Assembly: GCF_003334765.1 (NCBI RefSeq)
Contig: NZ_QOWT01000002.1
DNA length: 64,000 bases
Strand: one strand, 5' to 3'
From: Escherichia coli
Lineage (GTDB): Bacteria > Pseudomonadota > Gammaproteobacteria > Enterobacterales > Enterobacteriaceae
The first letter of the stretch is position 1, and the number at the start of each line of letters is the position of its first letter. The notes beneath the pieces are model-generated. The model was not told the origin of the DNA. It made no database searches and saw only the letters and a program-made list of their open reading frames with translations. Shown one piece after another: positions 21,609-25,121 of this stretch. The position numbers and the translations under genes were made by a program.

Positions 21609-22288
21609 TATTTGTCCTTAAACTATAAATAATTAAAATATAAACATTGCAATACATTGATTCAGTCAATAGCCAATGTTTATACCCAGCCATTGAATAC
21701 GGCATGCGATCCAAAAAAACAGGTCGTAAAAAATGTATTCGTTGGTGTGGGGTCGAATAGTGATGTTTTCACTCCCCTGATTCAATTTAATTTTACTAAT
21801 GAGTAAATGTAGATTTAATTAATATATTGATAGGGGAAAGATTATCTTAAGGATCTTCTAAAAAAACACGAAATATATATTTAGAAAAAACAGGAAGCAT
21901 ATCAACAATGAATGCCAATAGCTTAAAAAACAAACAATGAACATATAATGCGATTGGCATTAACCCGCTTTTGTCGATATAATATATAAACACTATAGCC
22001 AGAATTTAATCAAGTTTCAATTACGTCCTGCCTGATTATTCAACTCTATTTTCTCCATTATCTGTATTAATAAATGATAATGAGTGTCAAACAGACATTA
22101 TTCATTTCAACATGTAACTTTGGGCAAAATCAAGATACGCGCAGAAGAATACTTTCCGAATGAAAGTTAAAGGTGTTTTATTTATAGATGGGGAGAGTCT
22201 TCGATAGTAGTGAGGTTGACAGATATCCGCTGCCTGATGAGCAATTATGCCCAATGAATCTACCTCATTGGGCATAATTTGGAACTCA

Positions 22289-22774
22289 TCAGATAGCTTT
22301 TGCCATCTTCAGATTACACGGGCTCATCTGCCAGTTGAATGTGCCGTTTCCGCTTTCATCAAGCGTTACGCTGGCAATGGCCGAGGTGGTAAACATAGGC
22401 GGCGTTTCGCCCGGACATAACTCGGCAACCAGATACCCGACTAACGGTAAGTGAGAGATCACCAGTACCGAAGCAACACCTTCATTGGTCAACGCCTGCA
22501 AATAGGCACTGACCAGACCAACATCGCCGCAGGGCGTTAACTCCGGCAGAACTTCTGCACTGGAAGGCAGGTTCAGACAATCCCCTACTTCTTCCAGTGT
22601 TTGCTCGGCTCGCAGGAACGGGCTCACCAGAACGCGTTCGATTTCCACTTTTTGACCTTTCAGCCAGTTCGCCATCAGGCGAGATTCGTCACAACCATTA
22701 GTGGTCAGAGGACGAACGGAATCACTGGCGGCATCGAGGGCTGCGTCGCCGTGACGCATGATAAAAACTTGCAT
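22289..22774 (-). CDS. sixA: phosphohistidine phosphatase
   Basis: 161 aa, RHG catalytic motif (MRHGDA). Confidence 0.9.
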   Translation of the reverse strand: MQVFIMRHGDAALDAASDSVRPLTTNGCDESRLMANWLKGQKVEIERVLVSPFLRAEQTLEEVGDCLNLPSSAEVLPELTPCGDVGLVSAYLQALTNEGVASVLVISHLPLVGYLVAELCPGETPPMFTTSAIASVTLDESGNGTFNWQMSPCNLKMAKAI

Positions 22775-22976
22775 ATTGCACCGCTTTTGTTAACCAGATT
22801 CGCCCGTTTTCTTTCATCTGAAACCAGAGAAAGAAAACGGTGGCCGGCATTGTGCCTTATCCATTCACCGAATGAAACGCTGTTTTTTACCTCAATGGCG
22901 TAAGTATAGTCAATATGCGTTTACATTTTGACCAACACTCCGCCATTCAGCGCGGATTCATATAGCTTTGACCTTC

Positions 22977-25121
22977 TTATTGCAGGTCAGTTGCAGTTGT
23001 TTTCCAAAAACTTTCCCCACGCGCGCCCATCTCGACCAAACGCTCGCAAGGGGTAAAACGGGAACCATACTGCGTGGCAAGTCGTTGCATTATTGCAACC
23101 ACTTCGCCCGCGCCGAGAGAATCGATATAGCGGAACGGTCCACCGAGAAATGGCGGAAAACCAATGCCAAATACCGCGCCAATATCCCCGTCACGCACGC
23201 TACGGATAACCTGCTCATCAACACAACGTACTGCTTCATTCAGCATCAACATCACACACCGTTCAGCAACCTGCGGTGCGGAGATTCGCCCCTGCCCTTG
23301 TGTGCCAATCAGCGGGTAAATGGCGGGATCGACCTGTTTTTTGCTTTTACGCCCTTTCTGACCATAAAGATAGAAACCCCGGCCATTTTTTCTGCCTTTG
23401 CGATCGTCGTTCAAAATTGAAGAAACAACATTTGCAGGCGCGCTAAAACGTTCTCCATAAGCGGCTTCCAGTACAGGAATAATTTTAGTCCCGGTGTCGA
23501 TTCCTACCTCATCCAAAAGTTGGATTGGGCCTACCGGAAAACCAAATTTCACTAGCGCGGCATCAATGTGCTCTACCCGTTCACCTTGGGTCAACATGCG
23601 GATAGCTTCATTAATGTAAGGCGCTAAGATGCGATTGACGTAAAAACCGGCTTTGTCACGCACGACAATTGGCGTTTTACCCTGTTTTTTCGCCAGTTTT
23701 ACTGTGGTAGCGATGGTTTGCGCCGATGTCCCCGCATGAGGAATAATCTCCACCAGCGGCATTTTTTCCACCGGACTGAAGAAATGCAGGCCGATAACTT
23801 GCTCAGGTCGCGTGGCGTGAGCGGCGATATCACCAATCGGTAAAGATGACGTATTCGAAGCAAAGATGGTATGAGCGGCGCAATTTTGCTCAACTTCCGC
23901 CACCATCTGTTGTTTCAATTCGAGATTTTCAAACACCGCTTCAATAATCAGATCGCGATGGGCAAAGCCGCGATAGTCCGTCGTTCCGGAGATTAATGCC
24001 AGCTGTTTGTCACGTTCGCTGGCTTTGAGATGACGACGGCGAACTTTGCCCTCCAGCTGATCCCAACTGTACTTCAGCGCATGATTTATGCCCTGCGGGT
24101 TGATATCTTTAATTCTGACCGGAATCCCCGCTTTACAAGCAGTGACATAAGCAATACCGCCGCCCATCAAGCCACCACCTAAAATCCCCACGCTGTTTAA
24201 TGGCGCAGGCGGCGCATCACTGCCGGGATCTTTCGTCACGTCCGTACTGGCAAAAAAGATACTACGCAGCGCCTGCGATTGTGGCGTCATCGCCAGTTCG
24301 CCAAACGCCCGAGCTTCGGCGTCATAACCGCTGCTGGTGCCCTGCGCTAATCCCGTTTCAACAACCTCCAGGATGCGTTCTGTCGCCGGATAATTGCCTT
24401 GAGTTTTGTGTTCTGTTTTCTTGCCGACCATTTTGAACAGCAGCGCACGACCTAACGGCCCCGCCAGAATACGCTCGCGTACAGGTAGAGGGCGGGAAGA
24501 TGGGCGCTCCTTCTTTGCCAGCTCAACAGCGGCTTCCAGCAGAATGGAGTGCGGAACAACGTCATCCACCAGCCCCAGCTTTAATGCCTGTTTCGCCCGA
24601 AGTTGTTTTCCGGTGAGGATCATCTCTAATGCTGTGCTGACGCCTATCAGACGCGGTAAACGCTGGGTGCCGCCTGAACCGGGTAACAATCCAAGTTGTA
24701 CTTCAGGCAAACCGAGCACCGTTTTAGGATCGTCAGTACAAACGCGACCGTGGCACGCCAGCGCCAACTCCAGCCCACCACCCAGGCAAGCGCCATGAAT
24801 AGCCGCGATAACCTGAATGGGCAAAGCATGAATCTCCGCCATCAACTGTTGGCCCTGCCGCGCCAGAGCTTCCGCTTCTTGCGCCGTTTTGCAGTTGCCG
24901 ATCATGTTGATGTCTGCGCCAGCAATGAAGTTGTCCGGTTTAGCGGAGACAAACACCACGCCTCGCAACTCTTTGTTTTCACGGAGTTGCTTAATAATGG
25001 CGCGCACCTGCGAGGCAAACTCCGCCTTCAGGGTATTCATTTTCTCACCCGGTACGTCGATGGTGATAACGGCAATGTTGTCCAGACGAACATTAAGGGT
25101 AAACGCTGATGTCATTTCCAT
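22977..25121 (-). CDS. fadJ: anaerobic fatty-acid oxidation complex alpha subunit
   Basis: 714 aa enoyl-CoA hydratase plus 3-hydroxyacyl-CoA dehydrogenase domains. Confidence 0.95.

Follow-up and report, generated by a model that had tools for sequence, protein, structure and literature searches.

A structurally conserved RNA hairpin at the mapped 5' end of Escherichia coli sixA, a candidate mRNA stabiliser

In Escherichia coli the classic 5'-terminal stabiliser is the hairpin in the 5' UTR of ompA, which works via RppH and 5'-end-dependent RNase E: a base-paired 5' end hinders both the conversion of triphosphate to monophosphate by RppH and 5'-end-dependent attack by RNase E. Stem-loops of another kind arrest PNPase and RNase II, and it is there that Rho-terminated or processed transcripts acquire their stable 3' ends (Dar and Sorek 2018, PMC6061677). 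The hairpin ahead of sixA, which we describe here, fits best as a so far undescribed member of the former - and well-known - kind of element, a 5'-terminal stabilising stem-loop, which here would double as an exonuclease barrier.

The nitrogen-related phosphotransferase system and the ArcB phosphorelay are both targets of the phosphohistidine phosphatase SixA, whose own regulation is, to our knowledge, barely described. Its gene lies in the window analysed here, a 64,000-nt stretch of the E. coli chromosome in which adding 2,434,038 to a window coordinate gives the MG1655 coordinate. A sequence-only reading of the window had pointed to a palindrome just upstream of sixA, and both its letters and its coordinates proved exact: CCGTTTTCTTTC at 22804-22815 and GAAAGAAAACGG at 22829-22840 form a fully complementary pair separated by 13 nt. 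The distances it gave were borne out too, the stem lying 29 nt from the sixA ATG (22774) and the fadJ stop (22977) 136 nt from the stem, and its gene names are right, since RefSeq annotates sixA and fadJ on either side in 5426/5426 complete E. coli genomes. The features concerned are as follows.

22289-22774, minus strand: sixA coding sequence (phosphohistidine phosphatase).
22977-25121, minus strand: fadJ coding sequence.
22804-22840, minus strand: RNA stem-loop, with an outer 12-bp stem (22840-22829 paired with 22815-22804) and a bulged U at 22816; its basis is the fold, the structure kept in 74/74 distinct orthologues, and compensatory changes.
22828-22825 paired with 22820-22817, minus strand: inner part (4 bp) of the same stem-loop, with loop GUUU at 22824-22821, as given by the fold.

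The whole window contains six perfect inverted repeats that reach 12 bp or more with a spacer of 3-40 nt, whereas 100 dinucleotide shuffles gave 0.17 on average, so that the palindrome is more than chance. While the perfect 12-bp outer stem stood up to folding, the open 13-nt loop attributed to it did not: past a single bulged nucleotide, 22816, the bases tctg (22817-22820) and caga (22825-22828) pair up, which adds four inner pairs and leaves a loop of 4 nt. On the sixA strand the RNA hairpin comprises 16 pairs (dG -21.7 kcal/mol, z -5.8) and accounts for 82% of the ensemble. It is unchanged when the whole spacer is folded and likewise in the 108-nt 5' region.

Within the species, the region is matched in 5426/5426 complete genomes, always as a single copy between sixA and fadJ, and a 61-nt query across the hairpin is identical in 4873 of them and never repeated, a sensitive search included. 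With one copy per genome throughout and no REP-like sequence, membership in REP/BIME or any other repeat family was rejected; being single-copy, the hairpin is not a repeat-family member. An Rfam 15 scan of 22000-23600 with E up to 10 returned chance-level matches only (E >1), none of them on the hairpin. Five divergent E. coli strains carry the identical hairpin, and informative variation is confined to a rarer allele, that of strain N96: all seven of its positions that differ from the window fall within the stem, where they amount to three compensatory double changes plus one G-C to G-U, and pairing stays at 12/12.

On the other side of the gene, 10 nt past the sixA stop, a perfect 15-bp inverted repeat (22243-22279) is found, likewise without a T-run. 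A yfcV start is listed inside it (NC_000913.2 2454310, about window 22250; Kim et al. 2012), no Term-seq 3' end is called at it, and RpoD and RpoS SELEX peaks fall in the spacer downstream of sixA.

Conservation across genera had been named as a check, and the outcome separates structure from sequence. A SixA protein scan with one genome per species gave the closest 80 loci listed, from Escherichia, Citrobacter, Salmonella, Enterobacter, Klebsiella, Kosakonia, Kluyvera, Leclercia, Lelliottia, Trabulsiella and others. In all 80 of these listed Enterobacteriaceae loci fadJ sits about 200 nt upstream of sixA and the structure is kept, while the sequence is not. Their alignment shows an almost invariant upstream block (ATTGACTATACTTACGCCATTGAGGTAAAAAACAGCGTTTCATTC...GAATGGATMAGGCACAATGCC(C)GGCC) and an almost invariant downstream block (TTCTGGTTAACAAAAGCGGTGCAATATGCAAGTTTTTATCATGCGTCAC), and the segment between the two has little sequence common to different genera. 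All the same, 81/81 orthologous upstream regions (74-75 distinct) fold this segment, 29-59 nt long, into one hairpin between the near-invariant flanks; across the 74 distinct variants, each with a single hairpin loop, the mean z is -3.9 against dinucleotide shuffles. RNAalifold on a plain MAFFT alignment missed the hairpin, offering invariant pairs only, because the variable arms were misaligned, and hence we relied on per-sequence folding and a count over the basal helix in a flank-anchored alignment. In the latter, the eight basal pairs are paired in 84.6% of cases as against 28-55% when the 3' partner columns are slid, and the helix holds 77 doubly changed cells compared with 26 in column shuffles, none of 500 shuffles reaching 77. 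Moreover, 70/74 variants fold more stably as sense than as antisense RNA (by 5.4 kcal/mol on average; Wilcoxon p 5e-13), which argues that selection acts on RNA made in the sixA direction and not on a DNA palindrome or an antisense transcript. This is a genuine, non-random hairpin on which structural selection is strong.

Transcript-end mapping, the other check named, can be read from published data, which place a 5' end 2 nt before the stem and 3' ends 7 and 9 nt after it. The 5' end and the candidate promoter elements around it are the following.

22842, minus strand: mapped sixA transcription start (Kim et al. 2012), 2 nt (C, A) ahead of the first paired base.
22849-22854, minus strand: candidate -10 hexamer CACAAT, at -12 to -7 of the mapped start and near-invariant across genera; a putative promoter assignment.
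22872-22888, minus strand: weak -35 TTTCAT (22877-22872) and A-tract AAAAAACAG (22888-22880; -46 to -38), recognised from the sequence and part of an invariant block in 75 sequences.

Using 5'-triphosphate enrichment via Terminator exonuclease on exponential-phase MG1655, Kim et al. 2012 called one sixA start (NC_000913.2 2454902, 93 reads) with a 68-nt 5' UTR and an upstream sequence ending in ...GGCACAATGCCGGCC. In this one Terminator-exonuclease-based dataset the start at 22842 and the stem from 22840 leave a gap within the roughly 0-4 unpaired nucleotides that 5'-end protection requires. The stem begins 2 nt past the proximal start, which makes the hairpin the mapped 5' end of the sixA mRNA and not part of a fadJ-sixA spacer. 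Elsewhere among the orthologues the helix begins at the homologous +1 in 50/74 sequences and no more than 2 nt away in 64/74.

Directly after CACAAT comes a GC-rich discriminator (GCCGGC), and the A-tract resembles what we take to be a proximal UP-element subsite; together with the weak -35, these candidate elements account for much of the invariant upstream block. The 5' end lies in a GC-rich context (GGCC/ACC) that is atypical for an RNase E site, which, along with the well-placed -10, favours true initiation, and so we infer that the mapped 5' end is the site where transcription begins. Against this, the called start is a C, an unusual initiating nucleotide, and as for the Terminator-exonuclease call, a stable 5' hairpin can shield a processed end from the enzyme. 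A simple promoter scan called nothing at the hairpin in E. coli or three other genera. Two other readings of this stretch were rejected: a 42-codon ORF from the ATG at 22850 would open ahead of the mapped start, and hairpin lengths (36-59 nt) do not stay at multiples of three; a sigma-54 promoter reading of GGCAC-N-GC fails on an extra C that breaks the fixed spacing in most genera.

Further upstream, the spacer holds two more promoter-like elements from which longer isoforms would start.

22896-22909, minus strand: sigma-S-type promoter CTATACT (22909-22903), predicted start about 22896; placed by the Salmonella -130 start on homologous invariant sequence, the mapping being that of Salmonella, not E. 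coli.
22961-22994, minus strand: sigma-E-type promoter GCAACTG (22994-22988), 16-nt spacer and TCAAA (22971-22967), predicted start about 22961-22963.

In Salmonella SL1344, dRNA-seq gave two sixA starts, at -197 with a Sigma 24 motif and at -130 with a Sigma 38 motif and ppGpp dependence; coverage was shallow (10-13 reads per start), and no start was called at the hairpin base. The -197 sequence, GGAAACTG-N16-TCAAAG, fits the sigma-E consensus GGAACTT-N16-TCAAA, a sigma-E ChIP-seq peak lies at sixA, and sixA is induced along with genes of the sigma-E regulon. The sigma-E-type promoter overlaps the fadJ stop (22977-22979) in columns conserved across genera, and the last fadJ codons seem to be constrained by it. 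On the minus strand, invariant CTATACTTA at 22896-22909 corresponds to the ppGpp-dependent Sigma 38 start of Salmonella, and an invariant TGTAAAC lies about 20 nt further upstream. The three starts give leaders of 68, about 122 and about 189 nt; in the longer sigma-E-type and sigma-S-type transcripts the hairpin is internal.

RNA 3' ends on the far side of the helix come from Term-seq.

22797, minus strand: RNA 3' end in M63 (MG1655 2456835; Adams et al. 2021).
22795, minus strand: RNA 3' end in LB at OD 2.0 (MG1655 2456833; Adams et al. 2021).

These ends lie 7 and 9 nt past the stem, at -23 and -21 from the sixA ATG, with about 68,000 reads (M63) and 40,000 reads (LB OD 2.0); at LB OD 0.4 they were not called (Adams et al. 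2021). RNAs running from the proximal start to them measure 46 and 48 nt; the ends were seen in stationary-phase LB and minimal medium, not in exponential LB.

At LB OD 0.4 a 3' end was called instead at MG1655 2456929 (window 22891, minus strand, -117); its Rho score is 1.02, its intrinsic-terminator score 6.7. It comes after a long imperfect hairpin (22893-22950) without a U-run, and RNA from the sigma-E-type start to this point would be about 70 nt long. As a conserved structure that long hairpin was rejected, only its 3' arm being conserved, which is the sigma-S-type promoter.

How, then, might a hairpin so placed act? The reading we favour, and hold to be probable if by no means certain, is that of a 5'-terminal stem-loop which stabilises sixA mRNA against 5'-end-dependent decay and also blocks 3' exonucleases. 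Transcribed on the sixA (minus) strand, the palindrome gives an RNA hairpin; from the proximal promoter at 22842 the transcript would start 5'-CA and run directly into the 16-pair stem-loop, and in most other genera the helix begins with the very nucleotide homologous to +1. A 5' end paired in this way would hinder RppH and RNase E and so lengthen the life of the sixA mRNA, while in the longer sigma-E and sigma-S isoforms the hairpin may shield whatever 5' end remains past upstream trimming. From the other direction, the helix would stop 3'-to-5' exonucleases (PNPase, RNase II) and leave a 5' remnant of 46-48 nt (the hairpin plus 7-9 nt), which would be the species detected by Term-seq. That the hairpin raises the half-life of sixA mRNA is accordingly what its position and conservation suggest, and the 3' ends presumably arise by exonucleolytic trimming rather than by termination.

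In support of such a role, pairing is kept at sixA while sequence is free, and since only pairing matters for 5'-end protection, the conservation pattern matches it exactly. The 3' ends a few nucleotides downstream of a stable stem are likewise what an exonuclease barrier would produce. Speaking against it are the poor -35 (TTTCAT) and the blank promoter scan, the Salmonella calls at -130 and -197 only, both upstream, and the 3' ends 7-9 nt from the stem, which fit intrinsic termination as well. The sequence-only reading had suggested either an RNA processing or stability element or a protein-binding site. The first half of this gains from covariation on the sixA-sense strand and from mapped 5' and 3' ends that adjoin the hairpin; the second is disfavoured by a sequence that varies freely between genera and by a sense RNA that its G-U pairs make about 5.4 kcal/mol more stable than its antisense, an imbalance not expected of a DNA palindrome.

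Among the other explanations, all of which we regard as unlikely, the one that survives best sees the hairpin and its partly U-rich tail as a promoter-proximal attenuator, in other words a weak, possibly factor-assisted, intrinsic terminator or pause site. Expression of sixA would be held down by the release of a 46-48 nt RNA ahead of its ribosome-binding site. The ends, at 7 and 9 nt past the stem, keep the distance typical of intrinsic termination, their appearance in LB OD 2.0 and M63 and not in LB OD 0.4 counts in its favour, and the tail UUCUGGUU is nearly invariant, with 4-6 U in 9 nt in 55/74 sequences. In most genera the tail past the stem (AUUCUGGUU) has 5 U in 9 nt in an interrupted run; the E. 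coli tail GCGAAUCUG, where the ends were in fact mapped, has only 2 U. The earlier statements that the hairpin lacks a following T-run, and that it is not a classic intrinsic terminator, both hold: in E. coli no T-run follows on either strand and there is no U-tract directly past the stem, and a simple terminator scan makes no call at the hairpin, be it in E. coli or in three other genera. Besides, exonucleases likewise come to a halt a few nucleotides short of a stable helix. As the hairpin arms vary across the aligned loci while the surrounding sequence is fixed, no conserved competing (antiterminator) structure is possible, and any termination would therefore be unregulated. A broader version, in which the 46-48 nt RNA is a growth-condition-dependent product of promoter-proximal termination or pausing and, with the start-codon hairpin described below, tunes SixA under sigma-E, sigma-S and ppGpp, strikes us as a little less probable still.

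Equally doubtful to our minds is a role in protecting the 3' ends of upstream transcripts (from fadI or from the sigma-E or sigma-S starts), which would end or be trimmed back at the hairpin; what gains stability would then be the fadIJ message or a small RNA derived from the leader. Term-seq ends directly past the stem and the upstream Salmonella starts at -130 and -197 would fit this, and the further 3' end at -117 (22891) means that upstream transcripts do end within the spacer. The fadJ stop, however, is 136 nt away, a distance that takes in two or three promoters; neither fadJ nor sixA has a listed Rho termination region, the Rho score at the -117 end being 1.02; and LB coverage amounts to 131 reads downstream of the spacer versus 38 upstream (Adams et al. 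2021), from which it follows that most LB RNA here starts near sixA. Nor does 3'-end protection give any reason why the helix should be anchored at the homologous +1 in 50/74 sequences.

A further option, to which we give slightly less credit again, concerns translation and involves the sequence between the stem and the first sixA codons.

22763-22803, minus strand: invariant linker GCGAAUCUGGUUAAC, followed by the invariant start-codon hairpin (invariant columns and fold).
22788-22763, minus strand: start-codon hairpin AAAAGC-GG-UGCA-AUA-UGCA-A-GUUUUU, which holds part of the SD and the AUG, pairing the UG of the latter.

The start-codon hairpin is part of the minimum-free-energy fold in 64/74 sequences, and 80-81 of 81 sequences agree at the synonymous sites of sixA codons 2, 3, 7 and 8 while codons 11-23 vary freely; it may be a translational control element. 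Acting as an insulator of the ribosome-binding site, the upstream stem-loop would be a self-contained helix that stops variable leaders from pairing with the invariant linker and start-codon hairpin and so secures equal translation across isoforms. Its persistence in folds of the whole spacer and of the 108-nt 5' region is in keeping with this, as is a linker and start-codon hairpin invariant down to synonymous sites; besides, CAGCGUUU, invariant and further upstream, could base-pair with the AAAGCGGUG that covers the SD. For no long-range pairing is there any covariation, though, all columns being invariant, and insulation leaves the mapped 5' and 3' ends at the hairpin unexplained. It is, moreover, compatible with the stabiliser reading, not exclusive of it.

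The pairing of CAGCGUUU (22868-22886) with AAAGCGGUG (22779-22788; both minus strand) was proposed by RNAalifold; since all its columns are invariant, they are no evidence either way, and CAGCGUUU, lying upstream of the proximal start, is present in the long isoforms only. The linker was also met with in a study of the MazF regulon, which lists sixA with a 16-nt processed leader; this corresponds to an ACA at 22788-22790 (minus strand, -16 to -14), within the invariant linker that leads from the 5' hairpin to the SD.

Least of all do we believe that the element works as DNA, whether as an operator-like palindrome bound by a dimeric protein or as a cruciform: a perfect 12-bp inverted repeat does adjoin the promoter, but its arms are unrelated in sequence between genera and vary in overall length (29-59 nt), the G-U pairs of the sixA strand (mean 2.4 per hairpin) become A-C mismatches on the other strand, and sense RNA beats antisense in stability in 70/74 variants, all of which makes such a role extremely improbable.

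The sixA hairpin leaves the general picture unaltered. It is a clean natural case in which selection on a 5'-terminal stem-loop bears on structure alone, and could serve both for testing how mRNA decay depends on the 5' end and as a portable stabiliser. It is set in a control region that is compact and deeply conserved, with up to three promoters (housekeeping, sigma-S-type and sigma-E-type), the 5' hairpin, conserved through its pairing alone, and a start-codon hairpin frozen down to synonymous sites.

Compared with described systems, the hairpin shares with REP/BIME elements that it is an intergenic palindrome between two same-strand genes; these occur in many copies per genome with a shared consensus, in contrast to a single copy without REP-like sequence at sixA. 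With intrinsic terminators and leader attenuators it has in common a strong stem-loop in the 5' leader and 3' ends 7-9 nt past the stem; unlike the former, it lacks a U-tract in E. coli and has a broken one elsewhere, and its E. coli stem is AU-rich. Closer are the stem-loops at which PNPase and RNase II come to a stop (Dar and Sorek 2018, PMC6061677), which resemble it in having no U-tract and a 3' end a few nucleotides downstream. There, the 3' end protected is that of a Rho-terminated or processed transcript, whereas the RNA protected at sixA would be no more than a 46-48 nt 5' fragment, and no Rho dependence is recorded in the sixA spacer. From 5'-terminal stabilisers such as that of ompA the sixA hairpin differs in being internal as well, in the sigma-E and sigma-S isoforms, and in having 3' ends just past it, with a short 5' fragment that accumulates. 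It is nevertheless these E. coli 5'-terminal stabilisers that it resembles most in its layout: the helix starts 0-2 nt from the mapped 5' end, pairing alone is conserved, and a single-stranded linker and the ribosome-binding site come next.
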